64,000 nt of DNA, from NCBI GenBank assembly GCA_012441205.1, contig GCA_012441205.1_4705.1, one strand, 5' to 3'. Both the position numbers and the translations under genes were made by a program. The notes below the pieces were generated by a model, which was not told where the DNA came from, did not search any database, and was given only the letters and a program-made list of their open reading frames with translations. Shown piece by piece: positions 5,209-61,586 of this stretch. Origin of the DNA: a phage. Each line of letters begins with the position of its first letter. The first letter of the stretch is position 1.

Positions 5209-5257
5209 GGCATCACCTATGTATCATTCTTGCAGGCATCAATGAAGCCATCACAAG

Positions 5258-5313
5258 AAGGTAACGTTATACGTCGCCTTCATGACTGTCATCATGAAGG
5301 TAATATAGTCCTG
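5258..5313 (-). promoter_or_regulatory. tandem promoter-like motifs (AAGGTAACGTTATACGTC and AAGGTAATATAGTC on + strand; minus strand reads ...TATATTACCTT)
   Basis: Same motif family recurs at 18418, 30976-31038 and 59181, each just upstream of a minus-strand gene block. Confidence 0.45.
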
Positions 5314-5341
5314 TTATTTTTTTCAATACGGAGAATGTAAA

Positions 5342-5971
5342 ATGAGCGAATATGGTGTTGCCCCCGTAGATGATGAACCGCAAGAAGCACCTGATAAATT
5401 CGAGGTCCGTCTTGACGAAACCCGTAATATCCGCCAACGATTTATTCAACGCCTTGAAATGCTGTTAGATAGCGAATTCAAAGATTTCGAGCTTAATCCT
5501 GGCGCTGATAACAAAGCCATCGTCGACGTCGAAAACGTCGACCGAATAGGTAAGCTGTTGTTGAAATCGTTGGGCGATAACGACAAAGTCGACTTAACGT
5601 TGAAACGTATCAGTGCCGACCAGGCCATGAATGACAGCGCACTGAAAACAGCACAAGCCCTAACCGAAACCATGCTGCGCCGCTTAGGTCAGATGGATCA
5701 ACATCCTCTCGCAGCAGGGGCTGTTTATGAAGGCGAAGTCGTGAAGCCAGTCACGCCTGAAGAACGTGATCGTCGACTTGGTTTTGCGTCATTGGAAGAG
5801 TTCGATAGCAAGGAGTTCTCACCAGGCGTTCTCATCCAGGGACGTGTCGAAGAAACCAGCGATGCTTTCTATGCTAGAATGGCTCAACTGACGGCGTCGG
5901 TTCGTGAGGAGGTATCTCAGAAGATGGCTGCAGATCATCAGTCTTCGGAGGCGTCACACGAGGAGGAATAA
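5342..5971 (+). CDS. hypothetical acidic protein
   Basis: ATG preceded by GGAGA at 8 nt; 209 aa, Glu/Asp-rich. Confidence 0.6.
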   Translation: MSEYGVAPVDDEPQEAPDKFEVRLDETRNIRQRFIQRLEMLLDSEFKDFELNPGADNKAIVDVENVDRIGKLLLKSLGDNDKVDLTLKRISADQAMNDSALKTAQALTETMLRRLGQMDQHPLAAGAVYEGEVVKPVTPEERDRRLGFASLEEFDSKEFSPGVLIQGRVEETSDAFYARMAQLTASVREEVSQKMAADHQSSEASHEEE

Positions 5972-13882: not shown

Positions 13883-15223
13883 ATGATTAGTATTTTTGGT
13901 TTTTATACGTACAAAGGGTACGCTAATAACCACCCAAAAACCACGGCGAAATTCGGTGAGTTCAGTCAGCACAGTGCTACGTTCAGTCGCGAAATCGGCA
14001 TCTATACCAACACGGCGTACGCACGTACGACCTTATTAGTGTTGAATGCCGAAAACGAAGCTGGTGAAGCACAAACGCTGAATGACGACACCGCAGGCCG
14101 CATTCTTCAGGTTGGTCAATGGTTGCTGGAAAAAGCCTCATCAGGCGAAATCCAGGATGACCGAGACCAGGTTATCGGCTACCTAAAAGACGACTTCACA
14201 ACGTATCTGGATTCTATCGACATCCCAACACCCACCACCGATGGTACCGTCTATCTACCGGCGTGGATCAGTTTCAAGATAACCGCCACCGGCGATGTCG
14301 TCAAGATTTGGTTGTCTGATAGCGTATTCCAAAGTCAATATCCAAAATACGAATATGAAGTCGTTCCCCCTGTTCCTAAGGATCAGTTAGATACCTTCTT
14401 CGAAGATCTGGCAACATTGAAGAAACTGGTTGACAGTCGAAGCAGCGAGAAACTGACCGAAGAAATCAACGAGGTGCGCGACCAATTCCCAGACACACAA
14501 TTGTGGACGAAAACATATAAAGCGTACGATTACACCGACGATTCGAAATATATTAATACCGATTGGACGGTGATTATCTACGGTGCAGCAGGTAACAACA
14601 TTGATAATATCAAGGAGTTCCTGCAAAACTGGATTCTTAGCAATAGCACGCACGGACGTCCAGACTGGGAAATCGTTCTGCCGGATCTTTTTATTCCGAC
14701 GGAACACATCTTCATTCCAATCTGGAACCGCCACAGTGCGCCAGAAATGACCAATCAGGCACGTATCTATAGTCCTATATTCGATGATTCGTTGATGGAT
14801 ACCTACCTGAAAAACTTTGCTGATGGTTACGGCGAAACCGCCGAAGTCCGTAAATCGCTTCAAGCGGTGCCGACGTTGTGGCGCTCGATCGGTTTCTTAA
14901 GCGTTGGTAACTCACGTAACCGAGACGGTAAACTTAAGTTCTACGATCGTTGGCCGCAATACGCGCTCATCAGCACAACCAGCATCGATATTAACCGTAT
15001 CGATGATGCGACACGTGAATTCATCACGTTCACTTACGAAATGCTGAAACTGGCAGAATCGCTGACCGAAGACGACCCGGTACCGTTGGGTTATAGTCGT
15101 GTTACGCGTGGTAGCAATAGCTTCTTAGCGAAAAGCCACAACGATGTTCAGTATCTCTTCTTAACAAAAGAAGCGTTCCTGAAGAAAATGCCGGATGAAG
15201 CCGACACGCCTGTTGGAGGTTGA
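13883..15223 (+). CDS. hypothetical protein
   Basis: Track ORF 13847..15223; ATG at 13883 has GAGGA 6 nt upstream. Antisense ORF 14387..14863 judged spurious. Confidence 0.6.
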   Translation: MISIFGFYTYKGYANNHPKTTAKFGEFSQHSATFSREIGIYTNTAYARTTLLVLNAENEAGEAQTLNDDTAGRILQVGQWLLEKASSGEIQDDRDQVIGYLKDDFTTYLDSIDIPTPTTDGTVYLPAWISFKITATGDVVKIWLSDSVFQSQYPKYEYEVVPPVPKDQLDTFFEDLATLKKLVDSRSSEKLTEEINEVRDQFPDTQLWTKTYKAYDYTDDSKYINTDWTVIIYGAAGNNIDNIKEFLQNWILSNSTHGRPDWEIVLPDLFIPTEHIFIPIWNRHSAPEMTNQARIYSPIFDDSLMDTYLKNFADGYGETAEVRKSLQAVPTLWRSIGFLSVGNSRNRDGKLKFYDRWPQYALISTTSIDINRIDDATREFITFTYEMLKLAESLTEDDPVPLGYSRVTRGSNSFLAKSHNDVQYLFLTKEAFLKKMPDEADTPVGG

Positions 15224-15225
15224 TT

Positions 15226-15852
15226 ATGGCTGTAACACGCATGACGCCAAGTCCCGGTGCGGTCGGGGTATTCACAGTATCAGCGCCGTTTACCGTTGGT
15301 GCGTCAACGCTATATACCGTTACAGCGTTGCGAAGATTCAGCGAAGTCATCGGTAGTGGAATCGATCTATTTACGGAACTGTACGAACCGTTATCAATAG
15401 ACAAATCCACATTCGAAGCGCATCTCGAAGCGAATGCTTATCTCGTCACGTTGCAACCGGATTACGGTGCACCCGTACTGGTACCTGATACGTATATCAC
15501 GTCGTACCCAAAGAACGATTCATTGCGGTATCGTCGCATTATTCTGGGTATCGATTTCGGGCCTCTTCCTCCCGGTCTTGACCTTTCGTATTTAACAACG
15601 ATATTGAAAGGTAAGGCCAGTGATATTCTTGGTGTCGAACCTGAAGTTAAAACGATGGAAATCACTCTCGATGATACCGTTACTCAGGAACAACATCAGA
15701 TAAACGAAGCCCGTCGTCAGGCCGCGATAAAAGAGCGAGATACCATATACGCACGTTGTGAAACGCAAGAGAAGCAGATAACGGCTTTACTTGCAACCCA
15801 AAAGCAACTTATCAAATTGCTTCAAGACGCCGGTATCAATCCGACACCTTAA
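15226..15852 (+). CDS. hypothetical protein
   Basis: ATG at 15226 preceded by GGAGG; start overlaps stop of upstream gene. Confidence 0.55.
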   Translation: MAVTRMTPSPGAVGVFTVSAPFTVGASTLYTVTALRRFSEVIGSGIDLFTELYEPLSIDKSTFEAHLEANAYLVTLQPDYGAPVLVPDTYITSYPKNDSLRYRRIILGIDFGPLPPGLDLSYLTTILKGKASDILGVEPEVKTMEITLDDTVTQEQHQINEARRQAAIKERDTIYARCETQEKQITALLATQKQLIKLLQDAGINPTP

Positions 15853-18417: not shown

Positions 18418-18438
18418 ACTTAAGTAATATAGCCGTGA
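18418..18438 (-). promoter_or_regulatory. promoter-like motif (TTAAGTAATATAGCCGTGAAA on + strand; TATATTAC core on minus strand)
   Basis: About 30 bp upstream of minus-strand gene 17736..18392; same family as 5298, 31018, 59181. Confidence 0.45.
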
Positions 18439-18542
18439 AAAATGTTGGATTAAGTTAAATACCGCAACCGCAGCTAATTTTATAGGCTTTTAGCCTAAAC
18501 CAATCATCTTCGGAATCATCATCTTTGAAACAGGAATCTATC

Positions 18543-20013: not shown

Positions 20014-20045
20014 CATCCTCCCAACCCGTAAGGGAAGGGAGGATG
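20014..20045. terminator. nested hairpin element between convergent genes
   Basis: CATCCTCCC-aa-CCCgtaaGGG-aa-GGGAGGATG with GNRA-type GTAA tetraloop. Confidence 0.6.
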
Positions 20046-29495: not shown

Positions 29496-29771
29496 TTATA
29501 CGGCTTTTCTGTGCGCGTAGAACGCCTTCGTTCCGTTGTTGATTGCTTCAACCACATCCCGGGTTAACACAACGGCGTTATCGCTTCGAGACGACGGTGC
29601 GTAATACCCTTCACCGTTCTCGGTAATCAGGCGATAACGGACTAAGCCTATGCTCGGTTCAACACGTAGCACCTTCTCAAGTTTGTATTTGATGATCTTC
29701 GTCAGGCTAACCGTGTCTGACGCGTAGATCGCTTTATAAACTTTGTTCTTTGCTGTGGGTTTCATCAACAT
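29496..29771 (-). CDS. hypothetical small protein (putative early gene)
   Basis: 91-aa ORF. Confidence 0.45.
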   Translation of the reverse strand: MLMKPTAKNKVYKAIYASDTVSLTKIIKYKLEKVLRVEPSIGLVRYRLITENGEGYYAPSSRSDNAVVLTRDVVEAINNGTKAFYAHRKAV

Positions 29772-29811
29772 GATTTCTGTTGTATTTTCCTTTTCGCTTG
29801 TTGGTGTTGGA

Positions 29812-30111
29812 TTAATGTTTAGGTTCCGTTTTGTGTTGTGCGAGTAATGTGTTGATCTGCTCCCGTTGTTCTTTTAAGCATGCAGGAAGCTGGTCTTCCC
29901 GTACCGTTCCGATTTCCAACGTGATGTACCAACGTTGTTCGGAAGCCTGCCATTGAAAACTGCTCTGTAACCTCAGGATGCTAGGATCACGTACCTTGCT
30001 TGCACTGTAACGGTTGAACCAATCCAGGTATGCTGCTTTCCCTTCCTCGTCAGCGATGTAACGCTGCACGCTGTTCTTCCCTTTGTTCTCGTATCCCGTT
30101 GCACGTATCAT
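29812..30111 (-). CDS. hypothetical small protein (putative early gene)
   Basis: Track ORF 29812..30165; start MIRATGY at 30111 overlaps the upstream stop as ATGA. Confidence 0.45.
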   Translation of the reverse strand: MIRATGYENKGKNSVQRYIADEEGKAAYLDWFNRYSASKVRDPSILRLQSSFQWQASEQRWYITLEIGTVREDQLPACLKEQREQINTLLAQHKTEPKH

Positions 30112-30890
30112 GCGAACGTTTCTCCTGTAATGTGTTGCGGATGGCGTAGCATGGTAGCATCCCATTGTACGATCTGGCTTCGGCTTACCCGCATCATGAT
30201 GGATTCGTCATCAAGCCCCTGTTGCGCAACCGGCAACCAACGTTCCCCAAGCACCTTCGCTTCAACACGTTTCTTGCGTGGGTTGTAACGCACCTCGCTA
30301 ACCCAAGCGAATCCAAGCGGATGGACTACCCGTGGATAAAACATGCGAAGCAATTGATGCATCCGATCCGTTGCCTCCAATTTGCCATCCACCATGTAAG
30401 GTTTCACCATGGTAAGCTTTTTGGTGTAATACGTTCCAACGGTATGGTTACGCCAACTTGGCAAGGCATGATCCCCTTCTCTCAGTTTGCTATCCGAGTT
30501 CATTGACCAGACCTGCTGTTTACCGGCCAGCATCGCGTACTGCCGATCAACGCAACGAACCCGATCGGCGAACAATGGATCCAGGACATCATCCACCGCG
30601 CCCTTATTGCGATAACCGTGATGTACCACCAACCTGCTTGCGCTCATCGATGCGGGATGCTGGCTCTTATGCGCATACAGCCCTCCGTCACCGCGAGCGT
30701 CGTAAAGATAACCGCATGCGCCACGCCATATCACCTTGCCTACGGTTCTCTCGTCTTCAAGCAGCATCGTCGGCCCATCAAGCAAATTGGTGAACCACTG
30801 CACCTTCACGCATTCCGCTTGGACATGCTCAGGTAATGCCTGATACTCTTTTTGGGTGTATAAGGTATCAAAAATGATTTCTTCGTTCAT
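30108..30890 (-). CDS. hypothetical protein, first gene after the AT-rich control region
   Basis: 260-aa ORF; no motif recognised. Confidence 0.55.
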   Translation of the reverse strand: MNEEIIFDTLYTQKEYQALPEHVQAECVKVQWFTNLLDGPTMLLEDERTVGKVIWRGACGYLYDARGDGGLYAHKSQHPASMSASRLVVHHGYRNKGAVDDVLDPLFADRVRCVDRQYAMLAGKQQVWSMNSDSKLREGDHALPSWRNHTVGTYYTKKLTMVKPYMVDGKLEATDRMHQLLRMFYPRVVHPLGFAWVSEVRYNPRKKRVEAKVLGERWLPVAQQGLDDESIMMRVSRSQIVQWDATMLRHPQHITGETFA

Positions 30891-31717
30891 TTAAAAAGTT
30901 CCTCTGTTTCACGTTAATTAAACAACGTATTGATTTCTATTTGACAGAATACGAACATCGTACGTATCTATCACTTAGGTAACGCTTACGCGTCGCGTTC
31001 ATGATACCATGCATCATGAAGGTAATATAGCCGTGAAAGGATTTGTGTTAACGCAAGGGTTTTGTTTGTTTTTTAAGAAGGGATGGATTTAGAAGAGGTG
31101 TTTCAAGGAAGGTAAACGAGAATAGGTATTTTGATTTAAGTAAGATGTTATCTGTATCCGTTAGAAGTGTATTGTCTAAGTTATCTTGTTTATCTTAGGT
31201 TTAATCGTTTTTATCTTGGTATGTTTAAGTTGTTTTTATTTAACTGTTAAAATGCTTATCTTCAAAACAATGGATAACATGTGTTTACTACGCTCGTTGA
31301 GTTATAACTCAACGGTAACACATGTCATCTGTGCATTACACTACGTTACATGCTAGTTAAATCGGATAACTCAAAAAAACATTTGTGATACTCTTCTTCA
31401 CGTTGTTCATCAGAGTATCTCGTCTATACTCATTGCATTCGTATACGACATAACCGTTACACGCTAACGCTACGCTTATAGCTTGATAACTCTAAGGATA
31501 AAAACATAAACTCGCTTCGCTCGTTTAGTTTTTCTTTTTCTTAGAGTTATCCTGTTGCTCGTCTCTAAAGGACTTCGCTCCTCCCCCGTCCCCCGAAGGG
31601 GCCGAGGTCGTGGAAATTTTACTTTCCAAATACATTTACAACATCTGTAAACTTTTACTCCAGGTACTTAATCTTATCATTAGAAATTATAAAAGAGAAA
31701 ATAAACACAAACATAAA
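30891..31717. other. AT-rich ORF-free region with direct and inverted repeats (candidate origin / promoter cluster / ncRNA locus)
   Basis: About 830 bp with no ORF of 60 aa or more; five TTATCT(T/G) repeats (31150-31260), GGATAAC/GAGTTATC repeats, palindrome CGTTGAGTTATAACTCAACG; no tRNA-like T-loop seen. Confidence 0.5.
30976..31038 (-). promoter_or_regulatory. tandem promoter-like motifs (TTAGGTAACGCTTACGCGTC and GAAGGTAATATAGCCGTGAAA on + strand)
   Basis: Minus strand reads CACGGCTATATTACCTTC; 90-130 bp upstream of minus gene 30108..30890. Confidence 0.45.
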
Positions 31718-31750
31718 CCTTCCCCCGACCCGTAAGGGAAGGAGGAAGGG
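31718..31750. terminator. nested hairpin element downstream of minus-strand gene 31761..32654
   Basis: CCTTCCcccga-CCCgtaaGGG-aa-GGAGGAAGG. Confidence 0.55.
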
Positions 31751-31760
31751 AGAGATTAAA

Positions 31761-32654
31761 TTATTCGGAAACGTTATAACCGAATACTGCTTTACCGTAG
31801 GTGTGAGTACCGTCAGCTAACGACAGCACCAACACATGGTTGTATGTAGCGTTAACGCCTTTATCGGTAGACCCGGTGGTAGCACCGTTATAGACAAAGG
31901 TAGCTGTTTGCAGATTGGTTTTCAGTTCATTGATGATATCATCACTTACACCAGTCTGTTCTTTAATCAGGGTGGTCAGGTTACCCGCTAAGCCTGCATC
32001 GATCTTGGTATCGTTACTGGTAATAGCTTGTAAACCTGCGGTGTAAGTACTGAAGTCTAACGGATAGGTTAACAGACGTGCTGAGGTCTTGGTACCATCG
32101 CCTTCATCAACGTAGGTTAAGTTACCCAGATTGGTAACCTTGATGATGTTAGCCAGATCCAGCGTGGTGTTATAAACTTTAACTTGAACAGAGCCATACC
32201 ACGCCAACGAATCTTCTTTGGCTTCCAGGGTGATCGTCTGGATACCATGCTGGTCGAAGGTAACCGGCGTAGCTAACGTTTCGGCTTTGATGTCTTTCGC
32301 TTTATCCAGGAACTTCTCACCGGAAGGCGTGATCATACCGTAGCGTTGAGCTACAAGGTCAACCACATCACCGATGGTGGTGTTCGCCTCAACGTTAACA
32401 CGTACAGCGATCTTCTGGAACCACTTAGCCAGATCCAGACGATGGTAGGTGACATCTCGGTTATTGAAGTAAGGGGTACCTTCACCAGGACTAAGTGTTA
32501 AAGTTGCTTCTGGAGCAGAAGGATTCTTTTCTTTAAGGACGTATTTAAGGTCGGTATATTTAAAGCTGGCACCAGTGTCAGCGTTAAGCTGGTTGATCTC
32601 ATCAACGATAAGTTGCCAAGGTGTTTTTAAAGTAAGCGATACTTGAGCAGTCAT
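31761..32654 (-). CDS. YYDR-domain paralog family member (structural protein candidate)
   Basis: Internal start MTAQVSL with GAGGAAG SD; shares YHRLDL ... LAWYGSV ... GYNV motifs with 43714, 45536, 46398 and 32794 genes. Confidence 0.55.
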   Translation of the reverse strand: MTAQVSLTLKTPWQLIVDEINQLNADTGASFKYTDLKYVLKEKNPSAPEATLTLSPGEGTPYFNNRDVTYHRLDLAKWFQKIAVRVNVEANTTIGDVVDLVAQRYGMITPSGEKFLDKAKDIKAETLATPVTFDQHGIQTITLEAKEDSLAWYGSVQVKVYNTTLDLANIIKVTNLGNLTYVDEGDGTKTSARLLTYPLDFSTYTAGLQAITSNDTKIDAGLAGNLTTLIKEQTGVSDDIINELKTNLQTATFVYNGATTGSTDKGVNATYNHVLVLSLADGTHTYGKAVFGYNVSE

Positions 32655-32793
32655 TTTCTTCCTCGATAGTTGGTACATCACTCTCAAAAGATGTAAGTGT
32701 TTACAGAAATTAATATATTTTATATTAAATGTGAATATTATGGAGAACGACTCCGAATCTCCTTTTCGACCATCAAAATCAGAGGACACGAAC

Positions 32794-33339
32794 ATGTCTA
32801 CTTTAGACTTTAACAAAGCAGCGAAATCCCTTCTGCTTGATCTTATTAACACCAAAGCGACCCGCACATTGGCTGAAGAAGAACTGCAGTTCGGTACTCC
32901 GCAGGAATCTTCCGAACATGAAAAGAACACCGTTATTCAGCTGGACGCGGCGGCTGAAGCAGCTAACCTGCAGGGTACTCAGCAGTTCTACTACGATCGT
33001 CTGGCTCTGTCTGACGTTTTCGCTGATGTAACTGGTGATGTTACTTTCGAACTGCCGCACGGTACTGACAGCATTCAGGCTTCTGAGCTGGTAAGCAAGC
33101 TGGTCACCAAATTCGGTCTGGCTTCCCTGAATGGTGAAATCAGAGAAGAAACCTTCCAGCTGTCTGCCGGTACTGTTGATGAGGTAATTCTGAATGCGAT
33201 CGAGGGTGGCCTGGTATACACTGGTACTCTGCGAGTTGCCCTGACCTACGCACTGGCACCAAAAGACGAACTGGCAACCGTTCTGGCGAATAACGTAGCT
33301 GAAGGTTTCGAGAAACCGACCGTTAGCGTTGTTGGCTAA
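32794..33339 (+). CDS. abundant small virion protein candidate, minimal member of YYDR-domain family
   Basis: Strongly biased E. coli-like codon usage; FYYDRLAL ... FGLASL ... LVYTGTLRVAL matches the family domain; GAGGA before ATG at 32794. Confidence 0.6.
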   Translation: MSTLDFNKAAKSLLLDLINTKATRTLAEEELQFGTPQESSEHEKNTVIQLDAAAEAANLQGTQQFYYDRLALSDVFADVTGDVTFELPHGTDSIQASELVSKLVTKFGLASLNGEIREETFQLSAGTVDEVILNAIEGGLVYTGTLRVALTYALAPKDELATVLANNVAEGFEKPTVSVVG

Positions 33340-33632
33340 TAAGCACATAGAGCAATAGTATGGGTTTTGTACAGCTCGGCTATTGATCTTCTACAATTTG
33401 GTTGTAACAATCTGCGTGGTTGCACGCTTATCTTTCTCATTGAACGCTTCGTATGAAGCGTGGTGTTGAAAGGGTTGTGGATCTCCTCAAGCGGCCAGGG
33501 ACCCAGACCAACCTGAATAAACACAAACACATGTTAAGCCCCTCCTCATCCGTTATTGGGTGGGGGGGGTCTTATACGTCTTTATGCGTTCCGTTCGTTC
33601 TGGAGCGTTTTAGGACGGTTTATGATGGTGTT

Positions 33633-34268
33633 TTACTCAACACTGAACCCGTTCAAGATGATCGCTTCATAACGCTTACGTTCACGACGTTTGCGTGCCT
33701 GCCAACCGTAGATGAATTTCTCATCTTTCTCACGACGTTCCGCTAATTCGATGTAATAGGTGCTCTGCATGTCCAGCATCGCATCGATGAGATAATCCTT
33801 ACCGGTTGCACCACGCTTAGCGATGTAAGCGTCGAGCGCGCTTAACGTCGCAGGTCCCATCAAACCGTCGGCGTTGATATTCTTCCAGTACGTTTGTCGG
33901 TTGTTCATGACGTTCAGATAACGTTGGAGGTTCTTAACCGGGACGGTTTTGCCAGCATTGATACCCAGGTCAAAGAGACGGTCAGCTAAGAACACAGAAC
34001 GTTTCATGACTTCGTCAAGTTTCATCTTATCCCAGAAGTGGGTCTTGTAGATAAAGAACGCCATTTCCGTGGTAAGGTTACGCATGTTACCGTCCCAGCC
34101 GAATTTCGTTTTCAGCGTGGTTTTGTATTGATCGGCGAGTGTTTTCGTAATGCCGTGGTTCGTGATTCCACCCGAGTCATCGGGATCGTCGACGTAACCT
34201 GCTTCGATGCTGGTTTTATCGCGAATGATAAATTCGCACGTGAAATCTTTCTCAGTAATCTTAGCCAT
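33633..34268 (-). CDS. endolysin, GH108-type muramidase with C-terminal peptidoglycan-binding domain
   Basis: EAGYVDDPDDSGGITNHGIT matches the GH108 signature EGGYxxDPxDxGGxTxxGIT; Trp/Gly-rich C-terminal half is consistent with PG_binding_3. Confidence 0.75.
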   Translation of the reverse strand: MAKITEKDFTCEFIIRDKTSIEAGYVDDPDDSGGITNHGITKTLADQYKTTLKTKFGWDGNMRNLTTEMAFFIYKTHFWDKMKLDEVMKRSVFLADRLFDLGINAGKTVPVKNLQRYLNVMNNRQTYWKNINADGLMGPATLSALDAYIAKRGATGKDYLIDAMLDMQSTYYIELAERREKDEKFIYGWQARKRRERKRYEAIILNGFSVE

Positions 34269-34394
34269 TAGAACTCCTCGTTTAAATAACGATTTAGAGG
34301 AACAGGAAGGGTCTAGAACGCGATAAACGATTTAACCCAGGCAAACCCTAGATTAAACTTTTCGAAGCGTTACAACGCGTTCTAGAACGTTGAA

Positions 34395-36443
34395 TTAAAT
34401 ACCCTTGGTTCCCTTCACGTGATGTGCAATTTCTTCAACCATTGCACGCAGAGCACGAAGTTGTTGGTCATGTTCGTACCAACCACCCAACAGAACCCCG
34501 CTATACACCATGGTGTCAAGACTTAACAGCCCTTTATCTGATACGTTGATCATTTCCGGGAACTGTTCTTGAACACGCTGTGCGATAACACCGATCTTCT
34601 CGACATCAGGATCGTAGTTGTGACGGAAACGGGCAAGTCCGGTATACGCCATTTCACGTAAACGATCACTGAAAGATTCCGGATGATCTTTCAGATAACG
34701 AATGTCATGTTTACTACGTTCATCCGAGCGAATGTAAGCGTTAGGAACATCGATATTGCTGTTGAAGTACAGCGCACTACCACCGCCTGCAGAGTTCCCC
34801 CAATAGAAGCGTGTGATCTCACCGCCACCATTCTCCGTGATGATGACATGTTTACCTAAACGCGTACCGCCACTACCATCAACGAAGACCAGTTTGTTTC
34901 CGCTGTAAGAACCCCAGAACAAACGTGTATCGATGATGTGCGTTGCAGCGAGGCGGGCGTTACGTGGCGTAGAATACACGGTGTTAACATCTTGCTGCGC
35001 TTGCGCATCGGAAGCGATACCATAGTTCTGTACGTTACCTAACCCAACCTGCGCTTTCGTAACCGCGTGTGGGTTATCACGACGGTTAGCGTGAGCGTTA
35101 ACCAGATCACCCGCTAATTTCTGAATTGCCCAGTTGGTAGACTGTGGTGTCATGTAACGGTTAGTTGCAGAACCACCTTGCGCTTCAGCTTGGTTAGCGG
35201 TTGGATAGTTCTCAACGCTTCCCAAACCGACCTGCGCTTTGGTTACTCTGTGTGGGTTGTTCTTGTCAGCGATGTGCGCATTAAGCGGAACTAACGCAAA
35301 GGTCTCAATGGACGCTTTGGTTGTGTTCGGTGCCATTAATCGGTTAGCTGCAACACCGGCACGCGCTTCTTCTTCAGAAGCCATCGGATAGTCTTGCACA
35401 TTCCCTAACCCAACCTGCGCTTTGGTTACTCTGTGTGGGTTGTTGTAATCGGCTTTATGTGCATTAAGTGGAATCAATGCGAACTGTTCAATCGCTGCAA
35501 CAGTGCGTAGCGGCGTCATGAAACGGTTGTTCGCTGTTCCGGCTTTCGCCTCATCATCCGAAGCGGTCGGGAAGTTATCAACGTTCCCAAGGTTAACCTG
35601 TGCTTTGGTGACGCTATGCGGGTTGTCTCGACGGTTAGCGTGAGCGTCGACTAGATCGCCCGCCAGTTTAGCAATCGCCCATCCAACCGTTTGTGCTGTC
35701 ATGTAACGGTCTGGTGCGGTACCGGCTTCTGCCTCCGCCTTGTTGGCAGTAGGATAGTTCTGTACATTACCTAGTCCGACTTGGGCTTTTGTGGTTTCGT
35801 GCGGGTTATCGGTACGGTTAGCATGTGCGTAATGCAGATCGGTCAGATCTTTATCCGCTGCTTGCATGTCTTTGCGTAACTGATCGATTGCCGCCCAGAG
35901 ACGGTTATCGGATGCAGCATCACCGATAAGTATTGCGGCTTTCAGTGAATAGATCGCTAAGCAAAGATGTTCGGTACCGTAGATAGCACTAACGTGGTGG
36001 ATGTGTGGTTCAGGCGGATAAAGTTCCGGTTTGTTCTTGATGTCGTCCCAGTTGATCGGACGATCGTCAAGTTTGAGTTCTTCGATAGCCTGATACAACG
36101 CGTCAATAAGACTTACGTAAACACCACCGATGATACGATAGTCGTTAACTAACGTCCCCTCGATATCATCGTTGATGATGGCGATGGCTGCACAGATTTC
36201 TTTACCAGCGTAAAGCGTAGCGTCCTGATACAAGAAGATGGGTTTGTAATCCACGCCGCGTACCAGTGTCTTACCGGTAAGCTTTTCAGTGATGACCAGA
36301 CTTTCGGTGAAGAACGGTCCGCCATCAAGAGCGTAACATTTGTTCTCGGTTCGTGGAACGGTATGCTCTTCACCAACGATGTGGTTGCTATCGAGCGTGC
36401 CGGTCCAGTCCTCGGGGTACTTCAGGGTAATTGGTGTTGACAT
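34395..36443 (-). CDS. tail fibre protein with five ~45-aa fibre repeats and C-terminal intramolecular chaperone (S74-like) domain
   Basis: Five repeats of NRxDNPHxVTKAQVGLGNVxNY...NRYMT (about 35125-35835); C-terminal SDERSKHDI ... GVIAQRVQEQFPEM ... LRALRAMVEE resembles the autoproteolytic chaperone of endosialidase/T5 pb1-type fibres. Confidence 0.8.
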   Translation of the reverse strand: MSTPITLKYPEDWTGTLDSNHIVGEEHTVPRTENKCYALDGGPFFTESLVITEKLTGKTLVRGVDYKPIFLYQDATLYAGKEICAAIAIINDDIEGTLVNDYRIIGGVYVSLIDALYQAIEELKLDDRPINWDDIKNKPELYPPEPHIHHVSAIYGTEHLCLAIYSLKAAILIGDAASDNRLWAAIDQLRKDMQAADKDLTDLHYAHANRTDNPHETTKAQVGLGNVQNYPTANKAEAEAGTAPDRYMTAQTVGWAIAKLAGDLVDAHANRRDNPHSVTKAQVNLGNVDNFPTASDDEAKAGTANNRFMTPLRTVAAIEQFALIPLNAHKADYNNPHRVTKAQVGLGNVQDYPMASEEEARAGVAANRLMAPNTTKASIETFALVPLNAHIADKNNPHRVTKAQVGLGSVENYPTANQAEAQGGSATNRYMTPQSTNWAIQKLAGDLVNAHANRRDNPHAVTKAQVGLGNVQNYGIASDAQAQQDVNTVYSTPRNARLAATHIIDTRLFWGSYSGNKLVFVDGSGGTRLGKHVIITENGGGEITRFYWGNSAGGGSALYFNSNIDVPNAYIRSDERSKHDIRYLKDHPESFSDRLREMAYTGLARFRHNYDPDVEKIGVIAQRVQEQFPEMINVSDKGLLSLDTMVYSGVLLGGWYEHDQQLRALRAMVEEIAHHVKGTKGI

Positions 36444-36456
36444 AACCTGGAGGTCC

Positions 36457-39054
36457 TTATAACGTGACTGTACCTAATTTGGTTGTCTTATTGAGATTAA
36501 TGACTGAGATCTGGGTATCGCTGGTCGTGATGGTGCCGATATTAACGCGCTGTCCTTTATCATCCTCTTGCTTGTGGATGGTTAATTCCAGCTCTAACTG
36601 GTTACCATTAGGAACAACGGAAACGTACCATGTTTTATTACCTGGTGAGCTATTATAGTCTTTTAGGTTATAATGGCCTTTAGGTAAGGTCATGGCCTTA
36701 CCAGCAAACAAACATGAAATATCCTCGTTGATATAAACGTCGAAACCGGAAGAAGCGATGACTGTTGAGGCCATTATTCGAGACGCGACGATACCACGAT
36801 TATAGTCGTCGATTGTGGTACCTATGACATTGAATACTTGCCCCCCGTTACCCATAATGGTCGATTCGCTAGTGTTTACGTAGCCGATACCCCAAGTCGG
36901 ATGAATGTTCCAGCGGTACCCACTGTTTTGTAAATATGTATACAAGTCTTCATAGGCCGCATTCACCCAACTACCATCACTTTTTCGTCCAGCCCTAAAT
37001 TGGAATGTATTGCTATTTCCAGATGTTCCTCGGCCAAGAGGGACATGTCCCGCCACTAACCAACCATCTGTACTTTGCATATACGCGAACGAACCGTACG
37101 CTCTGTTATCGGCCCAAATATTCACGGTATCAACACGTTCAACGTAGGCGATCACCTTTTGTACGCCGGTTATAGCGATCGAACCCTTGCGTGCCGACAC
37201 ACTAACTTCAGCAATTACGACACCCATTTTCCGCTGGCTGCTGTTAAATCCCAATACAACCATTAAACACGGTGCGTTTGTTGTTTCTGGAGGAATCGTT
37301 ATCGATTGTTTCCAGTCGGTGATTCCGCTGAGTTTTGTTCCAGTATATGCGTTCCAGACGGTTTGTCCAGCCGATTTCAGATTCTGTTCAGAAATAGAAA
37401 TGGCCTCGCCCTCAGGGATTAACGTGTCGTAATTGAGACCAATGTTGCTGGATAGACGAAGGTCGTTTAAGTAAGATCCGCTGAGTGTGACGTTACCGTT
37501 ACGATAAATTGTCAAGAATGGCGCAGCCAGGGAGTTTAATACCGTAAAGTTACTCGATGGCATGAAACCATAGACATCGATGCCATTACCGTGGTAATGG
37601 TAGTTTGTCCAACTACCTTGATAACTTACGGTACGTGCATCGTAGTGGCCTTGTCCAAGACCGCTGCTGGATAACGTGTATATCTTGGTTGCTGATAGAA
37701 ATGCGAGATATCCATGCGCTGCCAGAGCTCCAACTACCCTGTCTTTTATCTTTAACCAAGCTGAAGTATACAACGTACTGTCGGGATTCATTTTGGCTAT
37801 TTCATCGTAAGCCGTGCCTGCGAAGTTTCCGATAGTGTACGTACGTATATCCGGCTGTCCGTTATTGTCGTTCTGTACAGCAATTACTTGCCCAGAATCA
37901 TTGATATCGATATTACCGATACAGTTGTGAGCCCCCCACACCCAATATCCATCTTTATAATTGGATTCTCCTTGTGTAAATGTCGACGGTCCTCGCCACG
38001 CGATGCCGTTCGATTCGGCGTAGTAGGTAGCTTGTCCCGATCCTGGATTCATGGCGTATCTGTTATTGGTCGGGTCAAAATCGATGTAAAAATGATGCAT
38101 TCCTTGACGTTGACGGTTGTCCCGATCATTTGTCCACCACGACGAACCGACCAGAATTCGCGCCTTACCATTTTTTACAGTGGACCATAAACGTATTGCG
38201 GCGCGCCAGACGATTTGACCGATCCCGTTGGACGGGAAACTATTCGTACTGATGCTGTTGCAGACAACGAGCTCGCTGCTGTTGTTTATTTGAGTCCCTT
38301 CAATTGTAACGCCGTTTATGTTAGTAATCAGTGTTGCCGATACACTACCCCCTGTAGGGGCGATAGAGGAACGTTGAACGGTGTAAATTTTTAGTGATAA
38401 TTTATAGCCGCTCCGAATAGCTATACCAATGTAAATAGTTCCGTTAATTTCCCAACAACAAACATCGGGCATTGTTTCTTTGAAATCGGATAAAGCACCG
38501 TCGATATACATCGCAACGTGTTTACTGGCGTCGAATGTGCCGTCCGTTAACGCGATGAACATTTTGGCGTTATTGCCGTTGATATCAGCCGCTAATCCGA
38601 GTAGTATGTTGTTCTGATGACAGTAGATGGCTTTAGGTGCTAGATCCAACATAGCTGGTTGGTACTGTCGGCTTGTTGGTATTACGCTAGTAACTGCACC
38701 ATTTTGATCCGTTTTACAAATAACGTAATATACACCGTGTATGATGCTGTTTGTCGCTGACCTCAGTAGGACGATCGTCCCGTCAGATTCACGACATATA
38801 CCGTAATGGCGATAGTCGGTGATTAAACCGATAGCGCCATCGGCCGAACCTTCGATTGCCAGAGGAAAATAACTTTGGTCCCCAACCTGTTCGATATCGG
38901 TTGCGCCGATATCGATGTATTTTTCCATCTCAGTGTTGAACTCAGCGGTACTGTAGGCACCGAGATCGCTCGCCTTTAGTCCCGTTGGGTTGTCACGACT
39001 GGCGATACGTGTAGTAACGCTACTCACCAGTTCGCTGAACTTTTTCATTGCCAT
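36457..39054 (-). CDS. distal tail fibre / receptor-binding protein candidate
   Basis: 865 aa, Gly/Asn/Ser/Thr/Trp/Tyr-rich; N-terminus carries one degenerate fibre-repeat-like motif (RDNPTGLKASDLG). Confidence 0.6.
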   Translation of the reverse strand: MAMKKFSELVSSVTTRIASRDNPTGLKASDLGAYSTAEFNTEMEKYIDIGATDIEQVGDQSYFPLAIEGSADGAIGLITDYRHYGICRESDGTIVLLRSATNSIIHGVYYVICKTDQNGAVTSVIPTSRQYQPAMLDLAPKAIYCHQNNILLGLAADINGNNAKMFIALTDGTFDASKHVAMYIDGALSDFKETMPDVCCWEINGTIYIGIAIRSGYKLSLKIYTVQRSSIAPTGGSVSATLITNINGVTIEGTQINNSSELVVCNSISTNSFPSNGIGQIVWRAAIRLWSTVKNGKARILVGSSWWTNDRDNRQRQGMHHFYIDFDPTNNRYAMNPGSGQATYYAESNGIAWRGPSTFTQGESNYKDGYWVWGAHNCIGNIDINDSGQVIAVQNDNNGQPDIRTYTIGNFAGTAYDEIAKMNPDSTLYTSAWLKIKDRVVGALAAHGYLAFLSATKIYTLSSSGLGQGHYDARTVSYQGSWTNYHYHGNGIDVYGFMPSSNFTVLNSLAAPFLTIYRNGNVTLSGSYLNDLRLSSNIGLNYDTLIPEGEAISISEQNLKSAGQTVWNAYTGTKLSGITDWKQSITIPPETTNAPCLMVVLGFNSSQRKMGVVIAEVSVSARKGSIAITGVQKVIAYVERVDTVNIWADNRAYGSFAYMQSTDGWLVAGHVPLGRGTSGNSNTFQFRAGRKSDGSWVNAAYEDLYTYLQNSGYRWNIHPTWGIGYVNTSESTIMGNGGQVFNVIGTTIDDYNRGIVASRIMASTVIASSGFDVYINEDISCLFAGKAMTLPKGHYNLKDYNSSPGNKTWYVSVVPNGNQLELELTIHKQEDDKGQRVNIGTITTSDTQISVINLNKTTKLGTVTL

Positions 39055-43672: not shown

Positions 43673-43704
43673 CCCTCCTCCAACCCGTAAGGGAAGGAGG
43701 AGGG
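43673..43704. terminator. nested hairpin element (archetype copy) between convergent genes
   Basis: CCCTCCTCC-aa-CCCgtaaGGG-aa-GGAGGAGGG: perfect 9-bp outer stem, symmetric AA bulges, 3-bp inner stem, GTAA tetraloop. Confidence 0.65.
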
Positions 43705-59363: not shown

Positions 59364-61586
59364 TCAGTTAGTCTGAACAGGCAGCTTGATGTTTTCAGTG
59401 TAGACCTTACGCAGGTTCACAACGTTAATCAGACCCAGCAGCGGGCAGTTGTTAACGAAGCGGCAGCGCGGCTGAACCATGGTTTCTTTAGAAACCTGAC
59501 CGTTACGGGTAACCTGAGCAACAGATACCAGTTCCGGTACATACAGGAACATACCGAAGGTCAGCGGATCCGGAGAACCCTGGATACCACGAGACAGGGT
59601 CACGAAGATCTTATCGCGCAGCATGACGTTCGGGTTATCTACAACTACGAAGTTGAAGCTTACACCAACGGTACGGAAATCACCATCGGTCTGCAGGAAC
59701 TGCGGGATGTAGTTGTCAGTTGCTACTACGCAACGCGGTTTCTCATCAGCGTTGGAAGACAGCAGCTGCAGAGCTGGCTGATAACCAGACTCGGAGTACA
59801 TGCGGTATGCCATCTCACGAATCACGTTCATGATCGCAGCAGACACTTCAGCACGACGTTCTGCAGTGGTGGTACCCTGAACAGATTTCTCCAGGTCCAG
59901 ATTGATTTCTTCGAACCACGGACGGATCAGGTAACGACCGAAACCTTCGATCTGGATGTCACCGAACTGACGGAAGCGAGAGGTCGCAACCGCTTTCAGT
60001 GCGTCTTTGTAGCTGAACAGTTTCTCAACCATCAGGTTGTCGAAACGTGCGTTAGCAGCTTGGATCAGAACGTCCAGGTCAGCAGCGTTTTCTTCCCAAT
60101 CCAGCGGACGAGGAATGGAGAACGGAGCCAGCAGGCCGATTGCGTAACGTTCTTGCTTCATGTTGAAGTCAAGGTGCTTACCGCGCTCACGACGGTTGCT
60201 GTTGTTACGGCGGATACGCAGTTCGTAACCAACCAGTTTGAAGCTCAGGTCTTCAGCCAGTTGTTTGAACTCTTCGCTCTTACGCGGTTGTTCGATGTTG
60301 TCCTGATCAACCAGGCGATACAGTTCAGCGTTAGCGCCGTTAACACGCAGACCGGCTTTCTCTACGTTGGAAGAACCGTAAACTTCGATCGCCAGCTGAG
60401 CAGCAGATTTCGCATCGATGATGTCCTGCAGCGCTTCAGCTTTCGCGCCTTTAACGTCTTTGGTGTTCTCATCAACGAAGATGGAGTGGGTGTCGAACGC
60501 CAGGGTCATTTTGCGGAAGTCGCCTTCCAGGGATTTCTGGAAACCGTTGGTGATCAGACCAGATACGTCGAACGGTACGTAAGAGGTTTTGCTGTGCTTG
60601 GTAGATTTGATTTCCACCAGGATTTTGGTCAGCGTGATCTGGGCGTCCAGCGCGTCGGTGTTGTCGCTGTAACCGTTAGCCAGGATGCTATCGTCTTCAG
60701 CAATACCGATCATGTCGATCAGTTTATCAACAGCCAGGTAAGACGTTTTGTAAGTTACGCCTTTAATTTCGATGTCGCGCGGAGCAACGATAGCTTTGTC
60801 AACGAAGTACTGTGCGTTAGCATCGTCAGCACGATAGATCGGATGCAGATCGGTCACGTCGTTGGACAGAACGTCGTTGTACATGAACGCATCCAGCAGC
60901 GGACGACGTACCCAATCAGCCGGAGTACCGTCAGCGTTACGACGCAGGTGGTTGAACACCAGCGGACGACGGAAAGATACGTCGTAACCGATCTGGTTCG
61001 GAGCCAGAACGATGGTGTTGTACAGTTCGTTACCCATGCGGCTCAGACGAGAAGCCTTCACGTTGAACACAACGGAGTACGGCATCATGTCACGCAGTTC
61101 TTTCTGGTCGTAGGACAGCTGAACCAGTTCTTCAGATTCGCAACCGCAGGAATCAGCAGCCATCATGACGAAGTTAGAGCTGTCAACTTCACGGCCAGAC
61201 GGAGTGGTGCTGATGTTCATGGAACGTGCTTGTTTAGCATATTCTACCGGGTTACCATGAGCCAGCATGATCAGTGCTGCTGCACGAGCCTGCTGTGCGT
61301 TCATGGTGAACAGCTGTTCTTCAATACGCTGCTTCTCTTCCGGAGTGGTGGTTTCGAAGCCCAGCATGGACAGAACCGGTTCTTCGGCTTTACGGATGTC
61401 GCTGCTGAAGCTCTTAACATCCATTTCGTTAACCAGTTTGTCCATGGATTTGAAATCAACCTTAGAAGCAGATTCCATAGACAGGAAGGTGTTCTCCAGA
61501 CCTTTGTCTGCTGGTTTGCTACCATTAGCGGTCAGGAACTGGCGAGTGGCCGCGACCTGTTGGCTAAGAAGGGTTTTATCATTCAT
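59364..61586 (-). CDS. highly expressed 740-aa virion protein; candidate major capsid protein of a jumbo phage (tail sheath not excluded)
   Basis: Strongest codon-usage bias in the window; size matches phiKZ-type capsid proteins (~740-750 aa, from memory). The antisense 766-aa ORF on + strand is a shadow ORF. Confidence 0.45.
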   Translation of the reverse strand: MNDKTLLSQQVAATRQFLTANGSKPADKGLENTFLSMESASKVDFKSMDKLVNEMDVKSFSSDIRKAEEPVLSMLGFETTTPEEKQRIEEQLFTMNAQQARAAALIMLAHGNPVEYAKQARSMNISTTPSGREVDSSNFVMMAADSCGCESEELVQLSYDQKELRDMMPYSVVFNVKASRLSRMGNELYNTIVLAPNQIGYDVSFRRPLVFNHLRRNADGTPADWVRRPLLDAFMYNDVLSNDVTDLHPIYRADDANAQYFVDKAIVAPRDIEIKGVTYKTSYLAVDKLIDMIGIAEDDSILANGYSDNTDALDAQITLTKILVEIKSTKHSKTSYVPFDVSGLITNGFQKSLEGDFRKMTLAFDTHSIFVDENTKDVKGAKAEALQDIIDAKSAAQLAIEVYGSSNVEKAGLRVNGANAELYRLVDQDNIEQPRKSEEFKQLAEDLSFKLVGYELRIRRNNSNRRERGKHLDFNMKQERYAIGLLAPFSIPRPLDWEENAADLDVLIQAANARFDNLMVEKLFSYKDALKAVATSRFRQFGDIQIEGFGRYLIRPWFEEINLDLEKSVQGTTTAERRAEVSAAIMNVIREMAYRMYSESGYQPALQLLSSNADEKPRCVVATDNYIPQFLQTDGDFRTVGVSFNFVVVDNPNVMLRDKIFVTLSRGIQGSPDPLTFGMFLYVPELVSVAQVTRNGQVSKETMVQPRCRFVNNCPLLGLINVVNLRKVYTENIKLPVQTN

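Follow-up and report, generated by a model that had tools for sequence, protein, structure and literature searches.

A composite conserved non-coding locus with a candidate structured RNA in Goslar-like nucleus-forming jumbo phages

Layout and conservation of the locus

The locus described here is a gap free of open reading frames (ORFs) in the DNA of a phage deposited in NCBI GenBank as assembly GCA_012441205.1 (contig GCA_012441205.1_4705.1), from which a stretch of 64,000 nucleotides, referred to below as the window, was analysed. It was observed that the gap extends over 870 bp (30891-31760), is flanked by two minus-strand genes and is the largest of the window in a crude gene map, with a GC fraction of 0.35-0.36 vs 0.467 for the whole window. 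A preliminary description had pointed to an AT-rich, ORF-free region of 830 bp as the longest non-coding stretch of the window, and this was borne out, the region being slightly longer than proposed. By megablast, the window was assigned to a close relative of Escherichia phage vB_EcoM_Goslar, a 237-kb nucleus-forming chimallivirus, and the equivalent gap of Goslar (14972-15825) carries no annotation. Judged by sequence comparison, several conserved non-coding elements together make up this gap in Goslar-like nucleus-forming jumbo phages, and every one of them is read on the minus strand, which is also the sense strand of the two flanking genes. In the direction of that strand, the locus and its two neighbours are composed as follows.

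Stop codon at 31761, minus: gp022 homologue, a DUF7941 virion protein according to family searches; late gene
31718-31742, minus: intrinsic terminator of the gp022 homologue, a GC-rich hairpin of 9 pairs with a UUUAUGUUUG tail
31659-31717, minus: AT-rich stretch of ~60 nt from terminator to core, holding a ATAAGATTA(A/G)GTA motif at 31669-31677
31373-31658, minus: ultra-conserved hairpin-rich core of ~290 nt, a candidate structured RNA by conservation and fold
31634-31652, minus: core hairpin H1
31611-31628, minus: core hairpin H2
31584-31607, minus: core hairpin H3, with a cUUCGg tetraloop
31568-31583, minus: core hairpin H4
31485-31551, minus: core hairpin H5
31424-31481, minus: core hairpin H6/7
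31387-31419, minus: core hairpin H8
31373-31379, minus: U7 run after H8, closing the core
31273-31329, minus: optional hairpin recognised by its inverted repeats, stem of 13 bp (GAUGACAUGUGUU/AACACAUGUUAUC), loop hypervariable
31148-31262, minus: array of five same-orientation repeats, consensus YWAAGATAAM (TTATCT on the plus strand); surrounding DNA very AT-rich and poor in G
31054-31147, minus: strand-asymmetric spacer, minus strand rich in C/T/A and poor in G, plus strand rich in G/T
31022-31053, minus: early-type promoter motif GTTAACACAAATCCTTTCACGGCTATATTAC, a recurrent motif, ahead of the gp021-gp014 small-gene block
30891-31021, minus: 5′ leader of the gp021 operon, with a GAGG ribosome-binding site at 30901-30904 and the ATG at 30890
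30108-30890, minus: gp021 homologue, a hypothetical protein, at whose gene start the gap begins

The homologous gap was gathered from 23 further Goslar-like genomes, giving 24 with the window phage. These came from IMG/VR, from public assemblies reached through gp022 homologues of 75-94% identity and from a metagenome pattern scan; the IMG/VR and metagenome pattern scans returned near-identical Goslar-like copies only, and among named phages other than Goslar there was no match to the locus, even in distant-mode search. Acquisition from the host or from a plasmid was considered and rejected, since no blastn match was obtained in E. coli genomes or plasmids. No tRNA or tmRNA was found.

Column identity, which was computed on a nine-genome alignment, reached 0.90-1.00 in the core (31658-31373), 0.90 in the promoter (31058-31019) and 0.87 in the part of the leader adjoining the gp021 ribosome-binding site; in most of the gap outside the core it was 0.2-0.7, and in the flanking coding DNA 0.5-0.83. 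The gp022 proteins of the relatives are 75-94% identical, and those of gp021 are 40-92% identical across the family and only 42% between the two main genome groups. These column identities and the divergence of gp021 altogether indicated that the non-coding core is much better conserved than the genes adjoining it.

The hairpin-rich core and its relatives

The predicted fold of the core consists of 7-8 hairpins (H1-H8), after which ACAAAUG and a run of U6-9 follow across genomes, and it was observed that the conserved block ends exactly at this U-run. Folding of the minus strand yielded -130 kcal/mol (z = -5.2 vs shuffled sequence), and folding of the plus strand -104 kcal/mol (z = -4.7). Twenty distinct core variants were found in the 24 genomes, and almost all of their variation lies in the apical part of one long hairpin, H6/7.

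With the core structure specified by the analyst, 98.8% of stem cells are paired across the 20 distinct variants. When the same structure was applied to a 14-sequence alignment, paired cells amounted to 98.6% on the minus strand vs 91.0% on the plus strand. For the stem pairs that vary (n = 14), the alternative states are still standard pairs in 12/17 cases on the minus strand, through G·U, vs 3/17 on the plus strand. All single transitions in stems preserve pairing, for which a null of ~0.54 per event gives P ~1e-3 by the analyst's own estimate. The G·U asymmetry between the strands favours the minus strand. In a different fold, computed with RNAalifold, the tip of H7 contains two compensatory pairs.

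Further evidence was provided by two relatives. In the first (L035, a metagenomic genome), the tetraloop of H3 is inverted, from UUCG to CGAA, in a segment (its positions 1239-1262) that corresponds to 31584-31607 of the window, and a U·G pair has become U-A at pair 74:95. Since the stem is kept despite the inversion of its loop, H3 can be regarded as a real helix. The inversion bears the signature of a hairpin-templated inversion at the DNA level.

The second relative (L030) is more distant, its gp022 protein being 55% identical, and its gap measures ~850 nt. When the 5′ domain (H1-H4) was searched as a covariance model, a match with conserved synteny and orientation was obtained in this gap (E ~0.003-0.01); H1 is kept there, and H3 shows two compensatory double changes. 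With both relatives added, the 5′ domain contains four double-sided pairs, a number reached by 1/500 shuffles, in an alignment that was model-fitted. The domain begins right at the stop codon of the upstream gene, and ~120 nt beyond it a hairpin and a U-rich tail occur in the same direction, which are read as a putative intrinsic terminator and are followed by an early-promoter motif. Between the core-like element and the early promoter of this genome (its positions 2270-2740), several very small hydrophobic ORFs are found on the opposite strand, replacing the AAGATAA array. A still more distant genome (L015, gp022 50% identical) lacks the core element, and the AAGATAA array is absent from both L030 and L015. 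The element appears restricted to the Goslar lineage, with a partial homologue in one uncultured relative. In Goslar itself the core is single-copy, and only the terminator and promoter modules recur there.

The DNA that precedes the core on the minus strand, between the gp022 terminator and H1, was also compared. Its motif ATAAGATTA is invariant in all aligned genomes, the surroundings differing between the two genome groups, and 31659-31717 may be the promoter zone of a core transcript. On the plus strand, a 16-mer within H1, TCTGTAAACTTTTACT (~31640-31655), equals the sequence upstream of Goslar gp245 (173084-173099), the gene divergent from chmA, and also resembles the sequence upstream of gp022 (Goslar 16770, minus strand). 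It may represent another motif of promoter type; if so, transcription would leave the core on the plus strand.

The repeat array and the flanking signals

The preliminary description had also reported five TTATCT(T/G) direct repeats, and these are real: the copies are found on the plus strand at 31148, 31181, 31190, 31211 and 31256, within a span of 115 bp in which ~0.03 copies are expected (Poisson P ~1.6e-10, or ~9e-8, that is, ~1e-7, once corrected for window position). Their spacings are 9, 21, 33 and 45 nt, and the conserved motif comprises only ~9-10 nt. The repeats proved to be conserved in related phages, the array being present in 16/16 genomes examined with 4-7 AAGATAA copies, nearly all in the same orientation, of which copy number, spacing and spacer sequence vary between genomes. 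In the 237-kb Goslar genome, it is the sole cluster of at least three copies per 250 nt. Moreover, over 150-300 nt no part of the window or of Goslar is more AT-rich than the DNA that holds the array: within the window, no other 150 nt fall as low in GC as the segment 31122-31271 (24.7%), and the homologous Goslar stretch has the lowest 300-nt GC of that genome, 27.7% vs 33% for the next. Since it is kept in all genomes examined despite the turnover of spacing and spacers, and is unique in the genome, the motif is selected as an array, whose likeliest role is to bind a phage protein, either as DNA or, possibly, as RNA.

Other repeats of the region were of less consequence. A 20-bp palindrome, CGTTGAGTTATAACTCAACG, is indeed present at 31295-31314, as had been described, but it is not conserved: it occurs in 1/24 genomes, the window phage, as the expanded loop of the otherwise conserved hairpin with the 13-bp stem, which is itself found in 19/24 genomes and is absent, for instance, in L005. 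Being strain-specific, the palindrome is therefore not a functional core. The GTTATC/GATAAC hexamer has six copies in 405 bp locally, which mean little because it is over-represented across the whole genome (85 copies vs 36 expected in the window, 2.3x). The hexamers CGATAA, ATAACG, AACGAT and ACGATA overlap with it, and together these words reach ~2.3-2.8x the expected counts, among the most over-represented permutations of their base composition in both the window and Goslar. As an oriented signal, GATAAC was rejected, as it is part of a k-mer bias of CGATAACG type that extends over the genome and does not switch orientation. DnaA-box 9-mers (TTATNCACA, at most one mismatch) gave one match in the region (31330-31338) and are not enriched window-wide (54 vs 61.9 expected), so that the proposal of the GATAAC copies as DnaA-box-like cores fails, and with it the basis on which a replication origin had been put forward. 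A DnaA-dependent oriC-type origin was likewise rejected, since there is no DnaA-box cluster, though the AT-rich DNA expected of an unwinding element is there.

Between the array and the promoter, the spacer exhibits a plus-strand GC skew of +0.5 to +0.8, and is conserved within one genome group and partly between groups. In the group to which L014 belongs (~5560-5600 of that genome, corresponding to ~31060-31110 of the window), it contains GATAACCTCCTTCC, which matches 11/12 bases of GATCACCTCCTT, the 3′ end of E. coli 16S rRNA. If transcribed on the minus strand, GATAACCTCCTTCC would mimic an anti-Shine-Dalgarno sequence.

The promoter motif in its extended form has three copies in the window, on the minus strand (5300-5316, 18424-18440 and 31022-31053), and ~14 in Goslar (among them those at positions 2567, 43266, 49732, 86705, 113797, 142800, 160791, 166069, 172978, 187639, 201944 and 226695), where all are intergenic and gene-sense and one stands 73 nt upstream of chmA. 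The Goslar-type consensus, GTTAAY...TTTCACGnCTAYATTACCTnnGTGA, lies ahead of minus-strand gene blocks; it carries no GenBank annotation and also scores as sigma-70-like (TTAACA, 16-nt spacer, TATATT). In a preprint (Armbruster et al.), chmA was one of the genes detected at 5 min post-infection, and the early promoters of jumbo phages were described in a review as conserved AT-rich motifs of ~10 nt near position -10. On account of its recurrence, of the copy at chmA and of the description in the review, GTTAACACAAATCCTTTCACGGCTATATTAC is read as the early promoter of the gp021-gp014 block, and the recurrent motif is probably a Goslar-type virion-RNA-polymerase early promoter. It shares with the phiKZ/AR9-type early promoters a short AT-rich conserved motif ahead of presumed early operons, but differs from them in that its consensus is known from sequence alone and resembles sigma-70 promoters too.

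Regarding the regulatory hub that had been suggested for this region, the intrinsic terminator of gp022 and the early-promoter motif ahead of gp021 uphold it. Sigma-70-like promoter matches in the region are at chance level (4 vs 3.5 expected). Three further observations concern promoters. The GTTTATGTTT direct repeat was rejected as a late (TATG) promoter, since it is not a genome-wide motif; no shared motif was visible in the upstream regions of late genes; and the TCTGTAAAC..TTAC motif has three intergenic copies only.

According to the terminator scan, the gp022 terminator hairpin starts 19 nt past the stop codon, and its stem persists in relatives despite changes in loop and stem. Hairpins nearly identical to it, CCTTCCTCCTTCCC...GGGAAGGAGGAAGG, are reused at many gene 3′ ends, in the window at 31718-31742, 43683-43701 and 20024-20038, and in Goslar at 61006, 27744, 71988, 97912, 134583, 48110 and both ends of the record. 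Three short public contigs (L017, L027 and L029) end 34-39 nt past the gp022 stop, within or at the terminator, and an assembly break at the repeated hairpin would explain these ends.

Downstream of the promoter, the leader carries an optional hairpin-bearing insert of 43 nt (~30976-31018), found in 4/24 genomes. A similar sequence lies downstream of the promoter copy at 5300 (window ~5230-5299), by which promoter and hairpin may move as one module. The gp021 homologue (30108-30890), with which the early block opens, varies to an extreme degree right beside a near-invariant core, and it has no match in Pfam, PHROGs, NCBIfam or PDB sequences. Its variability would fit a host-interaction or anti-defence gene.

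Interpretations of the locus

The reading favoured here, with a probability of about one half, is that the minus strand of the locus would carry a gene for a structured non-coding RNA, after which come an array bound by protein and an early promoter. It draws on the observed anatomy and conservation pattern, on the recurrent promoter and terminator families, on the genome-unique array and on substitutions that preserve pairing on one strand. The elements would be traversed from the gp022 terminator through the short AT-rich stretch, the ~290-nt core and the AAGATAA array to the early promoter and its leader. A phage RNA polymerase, moving leftward, would copy the core into a non-coding RNA with extensive structure (7-8 hairpins), which would end at H8 and the U-run or sometimes at the next hairpin; both this transcription and the position of its promoter are conjectural. 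Nearly every base of the core would be constrained because the RNA is presumably contacted along its length by conserved machinery. The 4-7 AAGATAA repeats would act as a platform for a putative phage protein, and the virion-RNA-polymerase early promoter with its leader would drive the fast-evolving gp021-gp014 genes.

Among the roles that the preliminary description had offered, a non-coding RNA locus has the best comparative support, which comes from the ~290-nt core, a part that the description had not singled out, and not from the repeats or the palindrome. Reviews have reported that phiKZ expresses non-coding and antisense RNAs, and the Goslar-type core would resemble these in being a candidate non-coding transcript of a nucleus-forming phage, although it has no sequence or Rfam relationship with them. 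In Rfam, no covariance-model match was obtained for 29500-33000 on either strand at E up to 1. In the literature searched, neither a replication origin nor a characterised structured non-coding RNA is described for Goslar, and the core and the array are undescribed; nothing sets the promoter and the terminator apart from the other members of the phage's own motif families.

Several observations weigh against a structured RNA gene. Covariation within the Goslar group is limited to one double-sided pair, which is not significant (reached by 190/500 shuffles). The loops and linkers of the core are as invariant as its stems, a pattern not usually seen in an RNA under structural constraint only, and one that would be compatible with a DNA site as well. 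The cUUCGg tetraloop is useless for choosing the strand, since it is inverted in L035. At the two ends of the presumed transcript, no known promoter motif was matched in 31659-31717, and H8 with its U-run is not a canonical terminator and was not called by the terminator scan. In addition, the alignment of L030 was fitted to the model, which biases pair counts towards structure, and the full-length covariance model had no match in L030 or in other distant relatives.

A DnaA-independent replication origin is the main rival, though a tentative one, and is suggested by the uniqueness of the array in the genome and by its location in the most AT-rich stretch, circumstantial evidence of a kind that is classic for origins. 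The AAGATAA repeats would then serve as iteron-like initiator sites in the most meltable DNA of the genome, and the core as an auxiliary DNA element or as a pre-primer transcript that extends into the AT-rich zone, in the manner of ColE1, T4 or T7. The locus occupies the longest gap of the window and contains the only AAGATAA cluster in 237 kb, within the 300 nt of Goslar that are lowest in GC; the array was retained in every relative examined for it (n = 16) despite spacer turnover, strand composition is strongly asymmetric, the candidate transcript points into the array, Goslar encodes RNase H, and no origin has been described for Goslar-like phages in the literature searched. Such an origin would resemble the iteron origins of lambda and of plasmids, which are generally known as direct-repeat clusters beside the most AT-rich DNA of the replicon. 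However, classical iterons comprise at least 3-4 direct repeats of ~17-22 bp in helical phase, whereas those found here are short (~9-10 nt), irregularly spaced (9-45 nt) and variable in number, with no recognisable initiator gene adjoining: gp021 belongs to no assigned family, and its rapid evolution is not that of an initiator. Neither an enrichment of DnaA boxes nor a flip in the orientation of GATAAC is seen, and both L030 and L015 do without the array. The GC skew changes slope near 15 kb in Goslar, but this tracks gene blocks and gives no clean polarity switch; cumulative GC skew was discarded as an origin diagnostic for the same reason.

A combined model, which appears decidedly unlikely, would unite the core and the array in a transcript-primed origin, in which the core RNA would be a pre-primer like ColE1 RNA II that runs into the AAGATAA array, and a phage protein and RNase H would make the primer within the phage nucleus. 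From general knowledge, the analogy with ColE1 RNA II, with T4 oriF/oriG and with the primary origin of T7 lies in a candidate structured transcript directed into an AT-rich meltable zone and in the RNase H encoded by the phage. The differences are that these origins have no counterpart to the AAGATAA array and that no G-rich hybrid-forming segment was identified at the Goslar-type locus.

It is doubtful that the locus is an ordinary cis-regulatory spacer, made of a terminator, a promoter and a long untranslated RNA, with neither an RNA gene nor an origin. The core would then belong to gp022 as its 3′ trailer, or serve as a leader when transcription reads through into gp021 at middle or late times, and the repeats would be operators tuning the early promoter. 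The terminator and the early promoter are well supported, all elements share one transcriptional orientation, no promoter was found for the core, and in L030 the 5′ domain starts at the stop codon of the upstream gene, as a 3′ untranslated region would. Nevertheless, untranslated DNA is not normally 97-100% identical beside proteins of 40-80% identity, a strong terminator separates gp022 from the core, and the repeats lie 95-240 nt upstream of the promoter and not over it.

It is very improbable that the conservation reflects a DNA site for some other process, such as pac packaging initiation, genome anchoring or a recombination hotspot, or the recent recombinational spread of one allele. In local alignments, the window is 96-97.6% identical to Goslar across most of its 64 kb, and the block 30802-36993 is divergent, with 89.7% identity. 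The flanks of the locus are mosaic, as this interpretation would have it, since nothing can be aligned on either side of that block; hairpin insertions, deletions and the loop inversion point to active hairpin dynamics at the DNA level, and the array is unique in the genome. On the other hand, 20 core variants from many independent samples and from both flank groups are all near-identical, which indicates sustained constraint and not one sweep, and the substitutions are strand-specific and G·U-tolerant. As for packaging, the site is tied to it neither by a terminase small-subunit context nor by information on genome ends. The mosaic block as a whole covers 30457-37885 of the window, where identity to Goslar drops from ~97% to 89.7%, and its unalignable parts are 30458-30801 and 36994-37884. 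In a Peptidase_S74 tail-protein gene of this block (~35000-35800), internal repeats cross-match a paralogue.

Finally, it is scarcely credible that the core encodes a small protein, such as the product of the 36-codon minus-strand ORF at 31525-31635: an ATG-initiated ORF of 36 aa does exist and its ATG is conserved, but it has no Shine-Dalgarno sequence, the small ORFs have no family matches, the few substitutions are mostly non-synonymous, conservation runs well past the ORF on both sides, 1-nt deletions in the core break the frame, and the L030 homologue has, by the analyst's reading, an unrelated reading frame of 19 codons.

The favoured reading of a structured RNA gene followed by a protein-binding array concerns an element that outlasts the neighbouring proteins in conservation, is unannotated in the reference genome and lies beside a genome-unique array. 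The locus is directly testable with the data and tools that exist for Goslar. If it were only a long untranslated region, the result would be an ordinary one. Nucleus-forming jumbo phages replicate and transcribe their DNA inside a protein shell with their own polymerases, and an RNA gene or an origin at this locus, if either is true, would be a new cis- or trans-acting component of chimallivirus biology.

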